A stretch of 64,000 nucleotides of DNA, from contig OX597815.1 of NCBI GenBank assembly GCA_951406725.2, positions 154,752,001 through 154,816,000 on the forward strand. The letters are read 5' to 3'. Position numbers and translations under genes: made by a program. This document shows positions 13,990-54,141 of this stretch, in pieces (position 1 is the first letter of the stretch; the number at the start of each line of letters is the position of its first letter). This stretch comes from Octopus vulgaris. Lineage: Eukaryota. The notes below the pieces were generated by a model, which did not search any database, was not told where the DNA came from, and saw only the letters and a program-made list of their open reading frames with translations.

Positions 13990-14395
13990 TAAATAGACAG
14001 CAGTTTGCAATGTTTCACCTAGAAGGAAACTTAAAATCGTTACTAAATGTGTTGTTTACACCTATAATAGTAGAAATGAGGCCTAAAATGCTCTAATGAT
14101 GCAGTCATATATACTGACAGGGACTGTAAGCGTACGAAAACACCGTTCGAGAATTCTTTATACTGACCTTTCAGTTTCGACTTAATTCTCTGTTAATATA
14201 TATGTTCTCATCATAGAAATCAATGGATGATTTAGCGAATCCCTAATGTGTATACAGAAAAATAATATAGACAGCTGTTTGTAATATTTCACCAAAAAGG
14301 AAAGCTATAACAATCACTAAATGTGACTAGGGCGTTATAAACACATTCATTCCTAGATATAAGAGCTAAAATACTCTAATGTTGTAGTCAAAACA
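13990..14395 (-). mobile_element. Tandem repeat of about 270 bp from the same family as 53710-54142, with a decayed hammerhead at about 14157-14219
   Basis: ATAGACAGC...CTAAATGTG...CTAAAATGCTCTAATG occurs twice. The minus strand has (A)UGAUGA...GAAA CUGA AAGG UCAG UA followed by GAAUUCUCG, as at 53964-53992. Confidence 0.7.
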
Positions 14396-14519
14396 TATAA
14401 TTGTATACATATGTGTGTGTGTGTGCATGTATGTGCTTTTCTGTGTGAGTGTGTGTATACACATTATCATATATAAATACTTCCATATTACTAAAAAGGT
14501 AAGGTAAAGTTATTTTCTC

Positions 14520-17295: not shown

Positions 17296-17329
17296 TATTG
17301 AAATTATTTTCACATTAAAATATTGAAAT

Positions 17330-18290
17330 TATTTTTGTATGTATGTATGTATGCATTTATGTATGTATGTTTGTGCAGATTTGTATGTTTTATGTGTGTA
17401 TTCTTATGCATAGAGTAACGTATCAAGACATATATATATATATATATTGAAATGATAACCTTCTGGAAGGTTTTACAGATTTTTACAGTTCCAGTGATAG
17501 ATTTTAACTGTAGGCTTCCAATTAGTTCTCTTCTTTCTGGTTTTGAGAAGCCTAGATTCTCAAGATTGGTATTTAGGTAGTGTGTTACATATTCCAGGAC
17601 CCCAATAATTACAGGTGTAAACCTAAACTTGTAATCTGGATAGAGTAACTGTATATTTCGCAATAATTCCGCATAGGTGTTCTCTTTTTCACAGATCTTC
17701 AGCTTTATGTTAACATCCACTGGGCAGCTAATTTCCACAACTGTGCACAGTTTTTCTTCTCTATACCAAATCATAATATCAGGTCTGTTGTGCTTACCTT
17801 TTACTGAGGTCTTCACTAGTACATTCCACCAGTATTCCTTTTCATTATGAGTGGCTATGGCTTTTACCATATTGTGGGATTTTATTTCTTTGTCCTTGGG
17901 ATTATCCTTCCGATGGATTTCATTATAGAGTGTCCTAGCTACAACATTATGTCTCATCGGTAGATAATACCGTGATGATACTTTCAGAGAACTGCTTATG
18001 ATGTGGGTAATATCTTCAGTGTGAACTCCACAAAGTCTGCATCGGTTGTTACATTTTACGGTTTTTCTCGCATCTCTATCTCTTTGTTGCATCAGGTACT
18101 TGGTCGATATTCCCCCTTCCTGGATTGCAAACGCATACTCTTCATAGTGGGAGGTGATAAGCGCCTATCAGACCAGGATAAACTGCTTTGATGATCGATG
18201 TCACTATCATCACAGAGCTTTCTACTAGCATATCCATGCATAGTGTTCTGCTCCTATAGGGTCATCCTTTCATCTAATGATACGTTGCGT
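17330..18290 (-). mobile_element. RLE-type non-LTR retrotransposon (R4/Dong-like), 3' fragment
   Basis: ORF 17310-18092 has a CRLC...EDITHIISS zinc knuckle (last Cys lost), RHNVVAR, RPDIMIW, VVEISCP, EKENTY and PVIIG, which form a restriction-like endonuclease domain. Upstream frame is broken. Confidence 0.88.
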
Positions 18291-23949: not shown

Positions 23950-26728
23950 AGTAACAATCCGAGTGAGTTCAGATTTCAGAGTCAAGTGAAGTTCGTGTTA
24001 GTTCACAGTGAAGTCAAAAGGTGTCGGTTGGTTTGTCCACAAGGAATATTGATTGTTGGTTGGTAAAGAGATTTGTTAGTTCGTTAGATTGTTTTACTGA
24101 TGTCTGGTTATCTTATTTATTGTACGTAACAAATTACACTACAACATCTGGCAACGAGTGTCTCGAAGCTCACATAGGTTATTTAACAATTTGTTCGTGA
24201 TACCACTTGTTAAATTATAGAAGACTCATTCGGTTCCATTGCACATTGGTAAAGCAACAACGAGAGCAGCAACAGGAGTCGCAGAAGCAACTATTGCAGC
24301 AACAAATACAACAACAGCAATATTCAAAGAAGCCCCAAAATGAGGTAAGTTCCTTGTCGCCAGACAGCATTTCGATCGTGATTAATGAATTTAGTTATAA
24401 CCCAGAGGAGGGTATAAGTTTTGTATCATACTACAGAAGTTACGAGGAGATTATTAAGCAAGATTGCAAATCATGATCAGATAAACAAAACGTGAGATTG
24501 TTATTGTGAAAATTAGCTCCGGTAGAGCATAAACAATACTGTAATTTCATATTGTCCAATACAACCTAATGAAATTTATTTCAGAGAAACAAAAGAATTA
24601 CTGTCTAACATATTCGATGATAAAACTTCTCTATTTAACACTCGAACGAGAGTGTTGTAATCTAATGAAAAAAGATAACGATGATTTTATCACATACGCA
24701 GGAACAGTCAACAAGATGTGTGGAAGTTTTAAACTCAAAGAAGGTAGACCTGAGATGATCAAGTGTCTTATTTTCGTACAAGGCCTTACATCAGGCGAAC
24801 ATGCAGCAATTCTGGCAAGAATTCTTTTTAACTAGGAACAAGTGAACCAAGATCTAACCTTACAGTCCGTGGCAGAAGAATACCAATTGATGGTAAACCT
24901 GAAATTCGGTGTAGAAACAGAAACAGACTAACTACCAAATAAGAAACTTCGTACAGTTAAAAATAAATGCAATACATATTAAACTTCAATTGGATATTGG
25001 AAGTGATATTTCAATGGACAAATGGAAGAAAATAGGGAAACCTATGTTGAGAGAAACAGCGAAATCTGCTCGTAACGTGACGAGCGACAAATTACATTTC
25101 ATGGGCAAAATATGGACTAATGTCACATTTCGAGGGAAAAAATTCAAGGCGAAAATCTTTGTCGTTAAAAAGGCAACCGATCTGTTTGGTATTGATTGGT
25201 TAGAATTATTCGATTTTTGGGACCTCCCCACATATCTCTATTGTAAATTCGTAAATGGTTGTCCTAAAAATAATTCGTCTGAGGAGTTAAAGAGAAACAT
25301 TTTAAAAGTGTTTCCGCAAGTACTCTCGGACAAATTAGGTTTATGTACAAAGACTGAAGCATGTTTTAAATTAGATGATAATGTTACACCTGTGTTCAAG
25401 CCTAATAGAAAAGTGCCTTTTGCGGCAATAAAGCATGTGCACGATGAGTTGGACAGATTGGAAAAAAAACAAAATCATTGATAATATGTATCACGCGAAA
25501 TGGGCAGCTCTGACTGAATGTATAAAAAAGAAAAAAAACAAAATTATGTTGTGTGCTGATGCTCCGACCGGTTTAAATGACCTTTTAAAAATGAACCATT
25601 ATCCACTACTGATCCCAGAAGATAATTTTGCAAAACTAAACGGAGGAAAAATATTCTCAACACTCGATCTATCTGATGCTTACCTACTAATCAAAGTAGA
25701 TAAAAAAATACTCAAATTTTTTAACTGTCAACACGCACAGAGGTCTATAGAAATATAATAGTCTACCTTTTGGACTGAAGGTATCACCTGCAATATTTCA
25801 ACAGTTAGTGGACGCGATGTTAGCAGACTGTCAATTTGCTATACCATACCTTGATGAGGTGTTAATCAAAAGTGAATCGTGGAATGAGCGTATCGAACAC
25901 ATGAGGTGTGTCTTTAAAAAATTTAGGATTATGGTTTTGCACTCAGTGAAGAGAAGTGTGAATATTTTTTGTCTAAAATCAAATACTTAGGTCAAATCAT
26001 AGATATGAATGGAAGACATTCTGACCCGTCGAGGGCAGACGCAATCATGACTATGCCTCCTCAAACGAATGTACTGACATTACAAGCTTTCCTTGGCCTA
26101 CCAAATTACTATCAACAGTACATTCCAAATAAACATAAATTGAGAGCACCATTAAAAGATTTACTAAAATAACAGAAGTAAACTGGAATTGTCAGTAAAG
26201 TGCCAAAACGCATTTGAAGATATAAAGAAAATACTAAATTTTGACTTGTCACTAGCGCATTTCGACCCTAGATTGGATATTGCAGCATCTGAGGCTTCGG
26301 AGTATGGAATAGGAGTAGTGTTGCTACACAAGTATAAAGATGGAATTATGAACCCAGTAGTTCATTGGTTACGATCGCAGACATCAGCGGAAAAAAAGTA
26401 TAGAGAAGGAGGCTTTATCGATTATTTTTGCGGTAATAAAGTTTCACAAATTTCTAAAGGTTGAAGTTTTTTGTTACAAACCGACCATCGGCCATTACTA
26501 TCAATTTTTAGATCAAAGAAGGTATTTCTTACCCATACAGCGAACCGACTAGAAAGCTTAGGTACACTATTGCTGAACTACAATTTTAAGATGAAGTATA
26601 ATCCGTCGAACAAAATTGGTCATGCAGACTGCTTATGAAGGTTAATTCCCGAGTTTGTTAGTTCGTTACATTGTTTTACCGTTGTCTGGTTATCTTATTT
26701 ATTGCACGTAACAAAGTACGTTGCAATA
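23950..26728 (+). mobile_element. Decayed Ty3/Gypsy LTR retrotransposon (gag-PR-RT-RNase H; integrase deleted)
   Basis: The LTR 3' segment TTTGTTAGTTCGTTA...GTAACAAA is repeated at about 24072-24146 and 26654-26728. PBS TGGCAACGAG at 24149. Motifs: protease LDIGS, RT IFSTLDLSDAY / YLDEV / IKYLGQII, RNase H ASEYGIGVVL and QTDHRPL. Many stops and frameshifts. Confidence 0.93.
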
Positions 26729-26899: not shown

Positions 26900-28480
26900 C
26901 TTCATATTGCAATCATTATTTGGGCACCATAGCCTGTCCGAGTAAAGAGTTATTGTTCGTAGAGGTATATCCGGATGTACAGAGTTTACGTAGCCTTTTT
27001 TGGAGATATTCAATCAGGGAGCGTTTGAATGTTATGAGACGTTTTCTTCATTTGTTGTCATGAGGTTAAAGAGAGTAGGACAAATCGAGGTGAAATAGTT
27101 CTGCCTTAGTCTTGTGATGTGACACAGGCTTAATTTTTCTTAAAGACGGATGTCACAGGCACCAACACCTCAGTGAATTTTAAAGTTAATGCCAACATCC
27201 TTGATATAGAGCTTACGGTGATTTTGCAAGGAATAAATTTTGAGTTCTCGATCTGATCTCAATAATCACGATCTATCATATATATTTTCTCATTTTGTGA
27301 TTGATCACTTCAATTTACATCGTGTCTGTTCTGTGTAGAGAAACCACAATGGACAACAGTATCCAAAGTGATGACAGGTGAATGTAGAAAAGAGAAGGAA
27401 CGTTTCTAGACCGGAAAGACCTGGGCCATGTCAACTTTATAGTTGTTGTGAACATTCTTACTTGTTCTCGACAGTAACTCCGAAATTTCTAGCCGTGTCT
27501 GTTACCACGAAGTTTCTTTCCGAGTTAAGATTGTATGGTAGCTTAAGTGCAGCATCTTTACCGAAGAAGATTAATTCAAATTTATTCTCTTTTTACTGCA
27601 TATATTGTTTTTGCGACCATTGGATAATTTCAAACAAATCCTATTGGAAATTTGGCCGGTTCCCTATGCTATCGCCTAGATGACATCATTAATATAAATA
27701 ATGAAATGTGTTCAATAGTCTTTAGTGAGACTCTACTAATTACTCTTACTGAGCTTGATCGAACATCATCACTATATGCAGGTTATGTCTATCGGAAAAC
27801 ATTCAATCCACTCCGATAGTTTCCCTCGGATTTCAACGTAAGATAGTTTCTTTAATAGGATGCTGTGAACAACCTTGCTGAAGACCTCAATGAAGTCAAG
27901 ATATATGACAACTGCTTAGGAACCCTCTTCCAGAGCACTTACGTTGTATTGAAAGTGATGCAGGACCTATATTAAGAAGTCCCTGCCATTGCAGAACCCA
28001 TGCTGTTTCAGAATAAGCAAACTATAGTAGACCGTTACCTTCTAACAAGTGAGTTACGTGATATCTTACCACACTTTAAAAGAATTTGATGATATGAGAC
28101 GCGATATCGGTCGGTAATTCACAATCAGTGATTTATTGCCCTTTGTGAAAACCGGGGCAATCGAATGGGATAGGAAATTATTGGGAATATAGCCAGCGTC
28201 CAATGATTTCCTGCAGAGAATCGCAAAAGGCAATGCCAGTTGATATCGACTATTATATGACTCTAACAGATGCTGTCGGGGCCTGTATCTGATTTCTTGA
28301 TAATTTGGTTTATAGCTGCAATGATATCCGAAACATAAAATGATACATAGGATCGTGAGTACTGGGGGTTGGTTTCGTTGATACTGTCCAAAATAAACGT
28401 GTTGAGATGGCTCAAAGGGGAGCAGTATTGCTTCTTCAGAATCTAATCCATATTTTCTGCACCACAATGCAGAGTGTAGA
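26900..28480 (-). mobile_element. CR1/L2-group LINE reverse transcriptase remnant
   Basis: Minus-strand fragments IAPVFTKGNKSLIVNYRPIS, QHGF and YLDF..VFSKVVHSILLKKL. Heavily degraded. Confidence 0.8.
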
Positions 28481-29249
28481 CTTTATTAATTAGATGTCCA
28501 ACACATAAGAAACTTATGCTTTTTTGGCGGATAAGATCATTTGGGGATACACTTACATTTTCTAAATGGTCCACTTCTCTTCTACTGTTCTTTTACTATC
28601 AATGACAGTCTTCCTACAGTTTGAAGATAATGTTTCTTTGATTACGGAAGTTATATCTATCGAGTGGGCTGGGGGTCGTTGCACCAGACAATATCTTGTC
28701 CGGTTCTCTTCAGTTCTCTTCAGTTACTTGGTGGACTGGGTTTAATTTTGCTCATGAACCGTAGTGGAATCTGGGGTGGATATATGTTTGTGACAATGTC
28801 CACACAGAGAGGATGTGTTGATGTTGCTTGGAGTAAGACAGAGAGAAAAAGACCAATGAACGAGTGAAAGATCATGGGTGATCACAATTCAGTTAACATT
28901 GTAAAGATCCATGAATTCAAAAGGGTGTGCCGGAGTGAGATCATTTAGTGCCAGTTTTGTCTGCCAGGATCCTCGGCTACAGAAGACCATATCGCGCCCG
29001 GAAAGGAGGGTTATTTCCCCCACTGTACTGTTATGAATAGTGTAAGTGTAGTTACTAAACCTTAAGAAATATAAGGTAAAACTATAACCTTGTTGTGTTT
29101 TCTTGTAGTTTACGTTATATCTTCCCGTATTGCTCCGACCTTATTCAAGGAGCCTCTTTAAATTTATTTAAAAAAATTTATTTTTACATATATTGTATAT
29201 TATTATTTTATTGTATATCACTATATTATGACTCTGATATAATATCTGA

Positions 29250-37063: not shown

Positions 37064-38354
37064 CGAGGGGCGTTCAATAAGTAATGCCTCTGACCCACTT
37101 GTAGTTGTTTGATCTAGCTGAAAGTTTGCATGTGCATTTATTTATATTTCTATAGATTAAGTGGCAAATTACAGCTCTGAACTAATTGTGGTTTATGATT
37201 TACAGGTGTTTGAACTGAGTCAAGTGTGAAATGGAGCCTGTTGAGTGTCCAGCAGTGATCCGGTTTTTGTATTTGAAAGGACGCACACCTCGGGAGACTT
37301 TTGATGAAATGAAAGTAACTTATGGTGATGATGCCCCTTCATATGACCTTGTAAAACGCTGGCATCGTGAATTCAAACATGGTCGGAACTCTGTGGAAAC
37401 AGCTCGCAGATCTGGTCGCCCCCCTTCTGCCATTGATGAGGCATCTGTCCGTTTAGTTGAGGCTGCCATTTTGGAAGATCGACGCATAATTATTCGCCAA
37501 ATAGCCCATGAGGTCAAGATTAGTACCGGGTCTGTGGAAACTATCATTCATGACCATTTGCATATGCCAAAGGTGTCAGCCAGATGGATTCCCAGGTTAC
37601 TCACAACTTTCCAGAAGCAAGAACGCGTTGAGTGCTCGAGGACGAATTTAGAGATGTGCCAAGAAGATGAGTCAAAATTTTTCAAAAGACTGATTACACA
37701 GGAGGAAACCTGGGTCCATCTCTACGATTCAGAGACCAAAACTCAGTCAATGCAGTGGAAGTACCGTGACTCACCTCCTCCAACGAAGGCAAGGGTGCAG
37801 CCCTTCGCTGGCAAGGTCATGCTCACAGTCTTCTGGGACCAGGACGGAGTAGTGATGACAGATTTCCTGGCAAAGGGTACCACAATTACAGGAGCCTATT
37901 ATGCTTCACGTTTGAGGAAATTAAGAGAAGCTATCAAAATCAAGAGGCGGGGCAAGATCAGCAAAAGCATCCTCCTCCTGCAGGACAACGCTCCGGTCCA
38001 CAACTCGCTTGTCGTCAGATCGGAAGCACAGGCGTGCGGCTATGAACTCCTCCCCCATTCCCCACTCTCCTGACCTTGCACCCTCTTATTTTCACCTCTT
38101 CCCAGCCATGAAGTTTTTTTTTGAAAGGAAAGCGTTTCCCAGATGATGCAGCCTTGATTTCTGAAGTCATGTCGTGGTTGGAGGACCAAGCTGGGGTCTT
38201 CTACAAAAACGGTCTTCAGAGCTGCATCAAACGATGGGAGAAATGCGTAACTCTGGGAGGTTCCTATGTAGAAAAAGACTAATAACTGTGCCAAGTTTCG
38301 TTGCTCTACTGCTATGGGAAGTGGGTCAGAGACATTACTTATTGAACGCCCCTC

Positions 38355-38355: not shown

Positions 38356-38396
<41 letters not shown>

Positions 38397-38473
38397 CAAA
38401 ATGTAACCACAGGTGGGTCGTTGGCGATTTTTTCCGTCATCTTCCTTTTCTGTGGGACTTTCCTCCGTTTCCT

Positions 38474-38508
38474 GTTTCTGATGAAGAGCTTTGCTCGAAA
38501 CGTAAAAC
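38474..38508 (+). ncRNA. Minimal type I hammerhead ribozyme (Penelope-type)
   Basis: GUUU CUGAUGA A GAGC UUU GCUC GAAA C GUA AAAC: stem I GUUU/AAAC, stem II GAGC/GCUC, palindromic stem III ACGU, GUA triplet at 38502-38504. It lies within a repeat of about 220 bp (38395-38612) flanked by (TA)n. Confidence 0.85.
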
Positions 38509-38612
38509 CACCTTTCTTTCCTTCCACGAGCGTCTGCTAACACTTTGCATGTACTACGACCTCGCGCTGTTGTTTTTTTTTCTTGTGTTTGTTCTTCGTT
38601 TCTTTTGTTTAC

Positions 38613-39510: not shown

Positions 39511-39621
39511 CTACGTGAGTAAGGGTATTGCTAAGGTGCATTAGCCAAATATCCGGGACTCTGAATTTCCGATGTTGTTGGCATGTCACCTATTGATATG
39601 TTTTTTTTTACTTATTCTTTT

Positions 39622-39934
39622 ATACTTTCATTTGTTTCAGTTATTTGACTGCGGCCATGCTAGAGCATCTCCTTTAGTCGAACAAATCAACCCCTAGGAC
39701 TTATTCTTTCTAATCCTAGCTCTTATCCTATCGGTATCGTTTGCCGAACTGCTAAGTTACGTGGACGTAAGCACACCAACATCGGTTGTCAACCGGTAGT
39801 GGGGGACAAATACACAGAAACACACGCGCACATACACATACACATATATACTACGATCATTCAGTTTCTGTCTATCAAATTCACTCACAAGGCCTTGATC
39901 CGCCCATGGCTATAGTAGAAAACACTTGCCCAAG
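39622..39934 (-). mobile_element. SINE family A, head truncated at the adjacent LINE fragment
   Basis: Homologous to 2405-2690. Confidence 0.88.
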
Positions 39935-40995
39935 CAACTGATTGGTTATGCGCAAACTTGTTCCATCCACGACGACCACCACCTCATTCGACATAATATA
40001 AACAGGGTGGGGAATGAAGATGGCATGGACGGGGAGTTGATCGATTTGGACAGTCTAAAGCCTTTGATAGGGTTAACCACCCATACCTGGCAGCCGCCCT
40101 CACGTAGGACGCTGAACGGAAGGACCTGTAAAATTTCTCGGTTCTGGTTCGGCCCAGATCTCCAGGTGGAGAAGAACTGGGTCGAGGCGGTGAGCAGGGT
40201 GGCCAATCTCACGCCAAAATGGGATGAGAGAATGTTATACCTGAAAGGTCTGGTGGCAATGGTGAATGCTTACATAGCATCTGTCATCTACTACCGCCTC
40301 ACCGCCGTGCCTTGTCCCGATTCGAATCTGACCAATCCGGAACACCTATTATTCCGCTTTCTATGGACGGGACGCGTTTCACCGGTCATTCGTTCCATTT
40401 TCTGTCAGCATGCTAAATGGGAAGCTAGGCATTCCGTGACTATTGATGTGCAGACACGCGTTGAGACTGCGACATCTTCAGCGATTCCTAGACGCTGAAC
40501 AATTGTGATCGCCGTTTGTCAGATGCAATTTCCCACAGCTTGTTTTTTGATTGAGCCACAGTCCTGGATCAAGCGTAGACAGAGGAGTGGCGCATGGCAC
40601 CTAAAGTGTCGTCAGGCGTTCACACTCCTCTGTCAGTCGGGCAATACGGTCCGTGGAAGTACCACTATAGAGGGTTAGTGGCGGGTAAGTGAGACGACGT
40701 TCTCGGGGAGTCTCTCGGCGTCGTAAATAACGAGTTGGCTGGTCAATTCCGGTGAATATTCATGGCCTGGCACTGCTACCGGAGGGCATTATCTTTTCGA
40801 GATAAATTCCACAGGCATGAAAGTGCATGCAGCTGGGCTTTGCTGAAATGTGCGCAGAACGACGAAACCGTTTTGCATGCTCTAATCCAGCGCCCGAGTA
40901 TTTCTGAGTTGTGGGTTTATGTCGAACACCTGCTGTCGCGTGTAGGACGAATCCAGCTATCAGCTGAGACCATCGTGAGGATAGTCCCACTGTCT
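39935..40995 (+). mobile_element. L1/Tx1-clade LINE ORF2 remnant
   Basis: HLIR...LIDLD.KAFDRV (frameshifted), WFGPDLQVEKNW, VNAYIASVIYYRL and a C-terminal C..ETVLHAL zinc-knuckle-like segment. Internal deletions. Confidence 0.82.
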
Positions 40996-51747: not shown

Positions 51748-51907
51748 GAGGGAGGGGCTGTGTGGTAAGTAGCTTGCTTACCAACCACACGTTTCCGGGT
51801 TCATTCCCACTGCATGGCACCTTGTTCAAGTGTCTTCTACTTTAGCGTCGGGCCAACCAAAGCCTTGTAAATGGATTTGGTAGACGGAAACTGAAAGAAG
51901 ACAGTCA

Positions 51908-51910
<3 letters not shown>
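51748..51910 (+). mobile_element. SINE family A, 5' half (3' half at 53195-53410)
   Basis: Head GGCTGTGTGGTAAGTAGCTTGC...GACGGAAACTGAAAGAAG runs into (TA)n. Confidence 0.9.
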
Positions 51911-51974
<64 letters not shown>

Positions 51975-52210
51975 TAATGCAATACGAGAGTATTGCTTTC
52001 CAATAAAGAATAGCCCGTGAGGGAAAATTATACATAGAAGTAAATATATGGCACAACGAAGTACCGATATTTACTGGAAAATAGCGTACGTAATAAATAC
52101 GACGCTAATGTATAGCTTCACCGTACTAGCAAAAATGCGTGTGTGTAACAAACTTGAAAAAAATTGTCTTACCTCCAGGGAGAACATCTGAAAGATGAAA
52201 TACCTAGAAA

Positions 52211-52295
52211 GGGATAATGTGGGACCGGTTTCAGATTTTTCAAGACATGTCTGCACACACATACTTGATTTATCTACATCAGCCATCATATACCG
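52211..52295 (-). ncRNA. Hammerhead ribozyme copy with a core substitution (CUGAUGU)
   Basis: Reverse complement of 52834-52918 with A9 changed to U in the catalytic core. Confidence 0.75.
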
Positions 52296-52833
52296 ACAAC
52301 ATTTCAGATGTTGCCACATCAATGCTAATACACTCGACTGAAACGCCAAAACGCTGACAGAACGAGAACAGTGAAGAAGTTTCAATAAAAATAGTAATGC
52401 AATACGAGAGTATTGCTTTCCAGTAAAGAATAGCCCGTGAGGGAAAATTATACATAGAAGTAAATATATGGCACCGGTCCCACATTATCCCTTTCTAGGT
52501 ATTTCATCATTCAGATGTTCTCCCTGGAGGTAAGACAATTTTTTTCAAGTTGGTTGCACACACGCATTTTTGCTAGTACATAGGCGGTGAAGCTATACAT
52601 TAGCGTCGTATTTATTACGTTCGCTATTTTCCAGTAAATATCGGTACTTCGTTGTGCCATATATTTACTTCTATGTATAATTTTCCCTCACGGGCTATTC
52701 TTTACTGGAAAGCAATACTCTCGTATTGCATTACTATTTTTATTGAAACTTCTTCACTGTTCTCGTTCTGTCAGCGTTTTGGCGTTTCAGTCGAGTGTAT
52801 TCGCTTTGATGTGGCAACATCTGAAATGTTGTC

Positions 52834-52918
52834 GGGTATATGTTGGCTGATGAAGATAAATCAAGTATATGTGTGCAGACATATCTTGAAAAATCTGAAA
52901 CCGGTCCCACATTATCCC
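52834..52918 (+). ncRNA. Type I hammerhead ribozyme with a long stem II
   Basis: Stem I GGGUAUAUGUUGG / CCACAUUAUCCC (imperfect). CUGAUGA at 52847-52853. Stem II AGAU-aaa-UCAAG-u-AUAUGU / ACAUAU-CUUGA-aaa-AUCU. GAAA at 52897-52900. Palindromic stem III ACCGGU. GUC triplet at 52904-52906. Confidence 0.88.
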
Positions 52919-53102
52919 TTTCTAGGTATTTCATCTTTCAGATGTTCTCCCTGGAGGTAAGACAATTTATTTCAAGTTTGTTGCACATACGCATTTTTGC
53001 TAGTACATACGTGGTGAAGCTATACATTAGCGTCGTATTTATTACGTTCGCTATTTTCCAGTAAATATCGGTACTTCGTTGTGCCATATATTTACTTCTA
53101 TG

Positions 53103-53186
<84 letters not shown>

Positions 53187-53194
53187 TATACATG

Positions 53195-53410
53195 TATGTG
53201 TGTGTGTTTATATGTTTGTGGTTGTCCCCCAACATCGCTTGACAACCGATGCTGTTGTGTTTACGTGCCCGTAACTTAGCGGTTCTGCAAAAGAGACCGA
53301 TAGAATAAGTACTAGGCTTACAAAGAATAAGTCCTGGGGCCGATTTGCTCGACTAAAGGCGGTGCTCCAGCATGGCCACAGTCAAATGACTGAAACAAGT
53401 AAAATAGAGT
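53195..53410 (+). mobile_element. SINE family A, 3' half
   Basis: GTCCCCCAACATCGCTTGACAACCGATG...GGCGGTGCTCCAGCATGGCCACAGTCAAATGACTGAAACAAGTAAAA. Confidence 0.9.
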
Positions 53411-53709
53411 AAAAGAGAGGGTGTATGATCTAAATACCTAAAGACATTAAGGGCATTAATTAATTGAAGCCAAACGTTAAACAATATTTGCCACACAACT
53501 ACCCATAATGCAAAGTGTAGTGTCAAATTGTGTAATATCGATTTAGTAAGTGAGGCTGCAATATCAGTTATTGACATTTGACTTTGAAGGCAAAGTAGCC
53601 GGTGGTGAGATTGAATTCTCGGAATTACGTAATTTCAATAACACCACTTCAAATTTCCCAAAATTGAAGTATCTGTATGTGTGTGTATTTATGTGTGTGT
53701 GTGTGTAAT

Positions 53710-54141
53710 TAATATAAACAACAGGTTGCAATGTTTCATCAAAAAAGAGAATTATAATTATCGCTAAATGTGACTAGGGTGTTAAGAAACACCTACGTTG
53801 CTAGAAATACAAGCTAAAATGCTCTAATGCTGTAGTTAATAAACATGACTAAAAACATATACACTAACGGGACCTGAATCGTCCGGAATGTGCCGATCGA
53901 GAATTCTCAATTAAAGAAAACCGAGATCGATCGGGCTTAACTGATGAGGCAACGGAAATTGCCGAAACTGATAACAGTATTAACAATTCTCGATCGGTAT
54001 TTTTCGGACGATTCAGATCCCTGTTACTGTATAGGTGCTCTTTCATGTGCGTTATCTACAGCATTAGAGCATTTTAGCTCTTATTTCTAGGAATGTAGGT
54101 GTTTACTAACACACCAGTCACGTCAGTAACAATTATACTAT

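Follow-up and report, generated by a model that had tools for sequence, protein, structure and literature searches.

The insertion at 51969-53105 in the window (the whole 64,000-nt stretch of Octopus vulgaris contig OX597815.1 that was analysed) is made of two arms of a 427-nt unit, placed head to head. It is probably a two-armed insertion of a protein-less hammerhead repeat, that is, a non-autonomous retrozyme which was mobilised by a Penelope-type enzyme. The features are collected in Table 1, in which u is a position within the 427-nt unit and u1 is 52480, the first base after the first GUC.

Table 1. Features of the insertion and of its target in the window
Feature	Position	Strand	Description
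Host SINE, 5' half	51751-51912	+	82% and 75% identity to two uninterrupted copies in the window; target, predates the insertion
Left GT(AT)n tract	51913-51968		57 nt; possible long target duplication or slippage
Inverted arm	51969-52474	-	u175-427 + u1-about 260; 506 nt, 1.19 units; ends 61-65 nt past the plus-arm end (tail)
Type I hammerhead, core-mutated	52211-52295	-	A9 to U at 52276; likely inactive
Head-to-head junction	52473-52479	+	2-nt arm overlap at 52473-52474; retains the helix III palindrome and a GUC half site at 52479
Direct arm	52473-53105	+	u421-427 + u1-427 + u1-199; 633 nt, 1.48 units
427-nt unit between GUC sites	52480-52906	+	38% GC; predicted stable fold
Conserved stem domain	52628-52729	+	11-bp helix (52628-52638 with 52701-52711) and 7-bp hairpin (52712-52729), around the first 3' end
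Tail	52679-52743	+	segment from the first recurrent 3' end (u200) to the second, weaker one (about u264)
Type I hammerhead, intact	52834-52918	+	long stem II, 1-bp palindromic helix III; cleavage predicted 3' of C52906
Right GT(AT)n tract	53106-53181		76 nt
Host SINE, 3' half	53186-53412	+	89% and 83% identity to two other copies

The initial annotation described a unit of about 425 nt, present as about 1.2 units on the minus strand and about 1.5 units on the plus strand, which meet at about 52473. The measured values (427 nt, 1.19 and 1.48 units, overlap at 52473-52474) agree with this description. The distance between the two GUC sites, at 52479 and 52906, is 427 nt; the minus arm, shortened by deletions of 1 nt and 6 nt, has a period of 420 nt. 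The unit folds with a z score of -5.68 relative to 100 shuffled sequences; as a circle its predicted folding energy is -119.6 kcal/mol, with 62% of the bases paired.

The hammerhead of the plus strand has the core elements CUGAUGA (52847-52853), GAAA (52897-52900) and a GUC which ends at C52906. Stem I is formed by 52834-52846 and 52907-52918 (9 bp, a bulge and a 3x3 loop), stem II has 15 bp and is interrupted, and helix III consists of 1 bp and a palindromic CCGG loop. All the attributes of a type I hammerhead are found: the CUGANGA and GAAA core, an NUH site, three helices and an open stem I. A strict type I descriptor detects three motifs in the window (38478, 52847 and 53941) and none in 200 out of 200 resampled windows. 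The motif at 52834-52918 had been called intact and that at 52211-52295 mutated in its core; indeed, the descriptor recovers a full core in the first, and the second carries the A9 to U change at 52276, which is absent from the variant table of the family. Contigs with an identical hammerhead occur in other runs (X8 record 27, X10 record 7, X7 record 32). The Rfam hammerhead models, suggested earlier as a check, give no match on the focal motif, even when 151 nt are searched with E values of up to 10 allowed. This miss is probably explained by the long stem II together with the minimal helix III, and the hammerhead call therefore rests on the descriptor and on the conservation in the family. 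An 8-bp local hairpin is present at 52810-52833 (plus strand), directly upstream of stem I. Family contigs stop or diverge at 52821-52835, showing that the subfamilies differ there, and one X8 contig skips 52822-52924.

The unit, or part of it, is present in 20 of the 24 runs listed (four organism labels, ten studies), and eight runs were examined contig by contig. The six DNA or unlabelled runs hold 1300, 809, 528, 310, 237 and 166 contigs of the unit, which are contig counts and not copy numbers; judged from these contigs, the 427-nt unit is a high-copy family. No RNA-labelled run that holds the unit was found among the 24; runs X8 (48 contigs) and X19 (4 contigs), whose RNA origin is a guess, hold pieces of the unit, in contigs that cannot show ends, strand or circles. 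A metagenome scan with a 22-nt ribozyme pattern gave 0 matches. With an 18-nt tail pattern it gave 13, all of which are limited to 18-19 nt and were taken as chance.

Conservation of the core across copies, proposed earlier as a check on the hammerhead call, is apparent from the complete variant table (29 positions whose variants reach 6% or more; four runs, each with a different organism label), and the call stands. None of the 27 positions of the core, proximal stem II and 5' stem I varies, compared to 29 of the 219 others in 52655-52900 (Fisher p 0.028), the p values of this analysis being modest, obtained with position sets that were picked from the structure after the table had been seen, and with variants that are subfamily-linked. 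This table under-reports near its ends: a C to A change of the cut-site base, which is missing from it, reaches 39% and 45% of the depth in X1 and X2, among the 40 of 55 variant rows listed. The NUH rule permits an A at this position.

The three insertions listed in 52875-52918 (6, 4 and 6 nt) all sit in helix III and lengthen it, and two of them retain a perfect palindrome. In the predicted minimum fold, helix III has 4 bp in both 6-nt forms, but not in the 4-nt form or in the form found in the window. Where present, these insertions account for 2-20% of the local depth, with 1-2 contigs per run each. The lengthening of helix III is the best evidence for selection on the hammerhead fold; the variant tables are unphased, which puts compensatory pairs beyond their reach. 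A global rod as the selected fold receives no support from the variation, since the predicted pairs are not protected along the rod (17 of 155 paired positions vary vs 12 of 91 unpaired ones, p 0.37).

The insertion had been described as devoid of open reading frames, which holds in substance. Its longest ATG frame is 95 aa and has no Pfam match, and no longer relative of the 137-aa element-sense translation was found, which is weak evidence. A coding role of the 95-aa frame was rejected on three grounds: its ATG is variable at 38-46% of the depth (X1, X2), frameshifting indels are present in the family, and it has no Pfam or protein relative. No frame for a reverse transcriptase with a GIY-YIG domain was found in the insertion or among the 150 of 184 filtered frames of the window that were scanned, whose Pfam matches are limited to mariner and LTR-type reverse transcriptase.

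This lack of a protein bears on the first alternative, according to which the unit is the terminal repeat (pLTR and tail) of an autonomous Penelope-like element and the locus is a truncated stump, or a copy with an internal deletion. Hammerheads do occur in Penelope pLTRs, and three traits of the focal motif resemble those described there (PMC4209133), namely the long stem II, the palindromic helix III and an extra base in front of stem II. Besides, retrozymes are often homologous to pLTRs: in Xenopus, 24 of 57 families were reported to match known elements, and 21 of these 22 elements were Penelope-like (10.64898/2026.07.22.740005). However, the sequence runs from the tail into the ribozyme with no open reading frame in between, both in the two arms and in multi-copy contigs with a divergence above 10% (X4 record 17, X7 record 30), and no protein remnant is seen. 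In the six DNA or unlabelled runs, the share of contigs that go on into unlike sequence is only 0-4%, a weak argument as the contigs are short, and a rare parent with an open reading frame could hide behind such contigs. A terminal repeat cut off from its element is thus an unlikely origin for this locus, and a unit that is protein-less by nature is preferred.

Recurrent 3' ends of the family are seen at one place in the unit and, less clearly, at a second. The first is at 52679 (u200), where loose ends are joined to TA repeats in at least 22 contigs of X1 and at least 7 contigs of X7, and where the plus arm of the insertion also stops. The second, at 52740-52747, is seen in at least one TA-joined contig of X8, in X4 records 19 and 20, in X1 record 3 and in at least four contigs of X3 that are not joined to TA. 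These few contigs end near u261-268, which matches the end of the minus arm (u260-264). As 19 of 170 and 24 of 159 loose ends were available for this comparison, the second 3' end is weaker than the first. The spacing between the two ends is 61-65 nt vs 30-40 nt for the tail of Penelope-like elements. In the stem domain that surrounds the first end, none of the 25 stem positions varies, against 24 of 155 others (p 0.021). This domain is a candidate binding site for the reverse transcriptase.

The target is a SINE, and the array had been placed in the TA tract within one such element. Consistent with this, the two halves are contiguous in both of the other copies tested (2406-2750 and 39616-39990), with 75-89% identity. 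The head of this SINE resembles a tRNA, but ARAGORN finds no tRNA in it. The matching GT(AT)n flanks may be a long target duplication or the product of slippage. The arms of the insertion differ by 15 substitutions and 2 deletions over about 1,130 nt (1.3%), and the insertion is therefore much younger than the SINE. A calibration implied in PMC13282606 equates a distance of 0.09 with about 25 million years; provided that its host and rate apply, the insertion would be 3-4 million years old.

The position and the ends of the arms are also what a second alternative has to explain, namely target-primed reverse transcription by a LINE, with twin priming from the read-through of a tandem array, the ribozyme being real but without a role in copying. 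Twin priming yields head-to-head inversions in L1 insertions, and the TA microhomology at both ends suits priming by base pairing. LINE-like relics are indeed seen by eye in the window, at 17313-18164, 28069-28482 and 39899-40495, with no Pfam match. The first of them, on the minus strand, is a 284-aa frame without a Pfam match, which to the eye resembles the end of a non-LTR retrotransposon that carries the zinc knuckle and the restriction-like endonuclease. But the unit has neither a poly(A) nor a simple-repeat tail, its main 3' end has a fixed place within the unit, seen again in a second organism, and the inverted arm shows a recurrent end of its own, which twin priming by a LINE does not predict. 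Copying by a LINE machinery is very improbable. The last alternative, which is scarcely credible, is that of a satellite or foldback produced by duplication at the DNA level and template switching, with a vestigial hammerhead: inverted junctions with a 2-nt overlap can come from DNA repair, and local tandem amplification by unequal crossover is allowed by the authors of 10.64898/2026.07.22.740005, but the insertion sits in the middle of a SINE, fixed ends join TA repeats across the family, and both the conserved core and the insertions in helix III speak against a vestige.

Under the preferred reading of a Penelope-mobilised retrozyme, the comparison of the arms gives information on the template. 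The same allele is found on both arms at 12 of the 13 sites that are strongly polymorphic in the family, these sites being linked and not independent. Both arms therefore come from one haplotype, which is compatible with a circle and with a homogeneous multimer alike. The argument that all differences are private, hence that there was one template, was dropped, because with three copies any site looks private. An A-to-I editing footprint is unsupported, A to G (element sense) accounting for just 2 of the 15 substitutions. The differences between the arms are clustered, with 6 substitutions and 1 deletion in u323-u404 (52223-52326 of the minus arm) and none in u175-u322; two of the clustered differences are attributable to the plus arm. 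This clustering is probably due to chance.

The following sequence of events is proposed. Tandem source loci would be transcribed, and the palindromic 1-bp helix III would allow adjacent units to cleave one another in a double-hammerhead arrangement. This would give 427-nt monomers, the ends of which would be held together by stem I and could be ligated. An enzyme supplied in trans would nick both strands of the TA tract and prime cDNA synthesis from both DNA ends, starting at two fixed sites of the RNA that are 61-65 nt apart (u199 and about u262). Both cDNAs would pass the cut site and extend for more than one unit, the template being an uncut multimer or a circle, and the cDNA ends would finally be joined at the 2-nt overlap. 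In the insertion, the plus arm crosses the GUC site twice, the second time by 7 nt, and the minus arm crosses it as well. A cut linear monomer is therefore excluded as the sole template, unless the enzyme jumps between templates.

A more specific scheme can be put forward tentatively, although the chances are against it: the Penelope-type enzyme would use one and the same 427-nt RNA circle as template for both ends of a DNA break, with two fixed starts spaced by about 62 nt, and would roll past the ligated site on either side. By lengthening helix III three times, the sister subfamilies would then have turned a ribozyme that cuts only as a dimer, which leaves the circle stable, into one that cuts as a monomer. 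If this is true, the family is a natural series on ribozyme strength versus circle stability and spread.

The locus itself seems to be a poor illustration of this cycle. The initial annotation considered that its transcription would release a 427-nt monomer, provided that the upstream site was completed in trans. The spacing of the GUC sites is indeed 427 nt, but the half site at 52479, in which the 6-nt palindrome is complete, is predicted to pair in cis, and 52906 is the weaker of the two sites. In the transcript 52473-52925, whose minimum free energy is -126.9 kcal/mol, the upstream half site pairs with the downstream core through a 6-bp palindrome helix at -126.6 kcal/mol (constrained fold), only 0.3 kcal/mol above the minimum; the local fold that cuts 52906 (-114.7 kcal/mol) lies 12 kcal/mol above it, and its much higher cost suggests that 52906 is the weaker site. 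Such long-range pairing is the double-hammerhead arrangement reported for motifs with a weak helix III (PMC4209133, PMC7229834). When the whole plus arm is folded, the value for the long-range helix, 0.60 before, drops to 0.0, and that for the local stem I rises to 0.48. When both arms are folded as a read-through, 437 arm-to-arm pairs are formed and all the ribozyme helices are lost. The fold thus depends on the length of the transcript. Cutting at 52479 would accordingly be confined to the time of transcription, and the locus is likely to be a poor source. Because of the 437-bp duplex in the read-through, predicted to be inactive, and of the loss of the long-range fold in the whole plus arm, the release of a monomer from 51969-53105 is doubtful. 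The locus is likely a decaying daughter copy. The plus arm has one complete hammerhead and one half site, and the minus arm has one mutated hammerhead; with fewer than two complete motifs, the locus falls outside the rule used in 10.64898/2026.07.22.740005 for an active retrozyme (two consecutive complete hammerheads in tandem).

Other elements of the window also carry hammerheads. A 350-nt foldback at 53770-54121 (plus strand), with arms that are about 74-80% complementary and a z score of -22, has in its loop another type I hammerhead, which is unrelated to the first: its core is at 53941, the cut is predicted to follow 53979, helix III has 4 bp, and there is a sub-threshold match to Rfam Hammerhead_3 (20.8 bits). 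The foldback has the appearance of an old Penelope-type stump whose end is inverted, and diverged relatives are found at 14048-14412. At about 38393-38605 (plus strand), a 210-nt piece located between two TA tracts, next to a mariner relic, contains a hammerhead of the minimal Penelope type, with its core at 38478 and a cut predicted to follow 38504. Two relics of mariner (Mos1-like) transposase, with HTH_48 and Transposase_1 matches, are present at 895-1850 and 37219-38070, and broken fragments of LTR-retrotransposon pol, with RVT_1 and RT_RNaseH_2 matches, at 24915-26461, all on the plus strand.

The value of these observations lies in the family and in the mechanism rather than in the locus 51969-53105. 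Which enzyme moves animal retrozymes, and whether their circles are copied, are questions called open in PMC7229834 and 10.64898/2026.07.22.740005. The locus yields concrete predictions on this point: priming sites at u199 and about u262 that flank a conserved stem domain, and arms which cross the cut site. The helix III subfamilies provide natural variants for a comparison of monomer and dimer cleavage.

Animal non-LTR retrozymes are already on record from coral, mussel and axolotl (Cervera and de la Pena 2020, PMC7229834). They are non-coding tandem units of 150-450 bp with a GC content below 45-50%, a type I hammerhead and a stable predicted circle, but without LTR, PBS or PPT. The octopus unit has the same features (427 nt, 38% GC, one type I hammerhead per unit, multi-copy, no conserved open reading frame), and its 1-bp helix III with a palindromic tetraloop resembles that of axolotl HHR_Amex1. 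It differs from these retrozymes by its two head-to-head arms, by 3' ends that are fixed and lie in a TA tract, by a stem II extended to 43 nt and by the single intact ribozyme of the locus; neither "inverted" nor "target site" is used in the main text of PMC7229834. Expression, cleavage and circles are reported there for the published retrozymes, whereas for the octopus unit they would be part of the proposed cycle. A plant LTR retrozyme (type III hammerhead in LTRs, PBS, PPT, 4-bp target duplication) was rejected, as the octopus insertion has a type I topology, a tandem unit and TA-tract flanks instead. A literature search, which covered mostly the main texts of freely accessible papers, found no paper on a cephalopod retrozyme, and the main text of the 2026 repeat annotation of Octopus vulgaris does not use the words ribozyme, hammerhead or retrozyme. 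The suggestion that the element may be undescribed thus needs to be narrowed: a non-autonomous hammerhead unit with a Penelope-like tandem and inverted insertion is what is found, but this kind is already in print and only the family of the 427-nt unit may be undescribed.

The hammerhead has further points in common with those of Penelope pLTRs, where helix III is also small and use as a dimer is predicted, and where a 2-nt palindromic insertion in helix III is described in D. virilis (PMC4209133). In contrast with the motifs described there, it has a long stem I (9 bp, bulge, 3x3 loop) and three sister subfamilies with helix III extensions of 4-6 nt.

Penelope-like insertions are described as partial tandems with an adjacent inverted, 5'-truncated copy and a tail of 30-40 nt at one end, often in TA targets, and the Chlamys elements of algae (MRC1) offer a comparable non-autonomous head-to-tail arrangement (Craig et al. 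2021, PMC8557442). The anole Penelope enzyme cuts and extends both strands, two internal starts on the RNA, downstream of the hammerhead, bound the tail, and insertion in vitro was reported to proceed without the need for ribozyme cutting (Frangieh et al. 2024, PMC11167929). The octopus insertion differs from endonuclease-bearing Penelope-like elements, as these two studies describe them, by the absence of a reverse transcriptase/GIY-YIG frame, a tail of 61-65 nt instead of 30-40 nt and arms that both exceed one unit. It shares with them the partial tandem, the inverted 5'-truncated neighbour and the AT-rich or TA-microsatellite target, and, to judge from its two 3' ends, of which the second is the weaker, probably also the tail at one end and the two internal starts downstream of the hammerhead.

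Li, Clavereau and Pollet (10.64898/2026.07.22.740005) have tied vertebrate retrozymes to Penelope pLTRs, as non-autonomous derivatives, and observed cleavage in one of the nine predicted dimers that they tested. The origin and the mobilising partner proposed here are the same, and the length of the octopus unit is inside their range of 51-972 bp. The basis of their proposal, as presented for a set of species with no mollusc, is co-occurrence and pLTR phylogeny, whereas in the octopus it is the footprint of the insertion.
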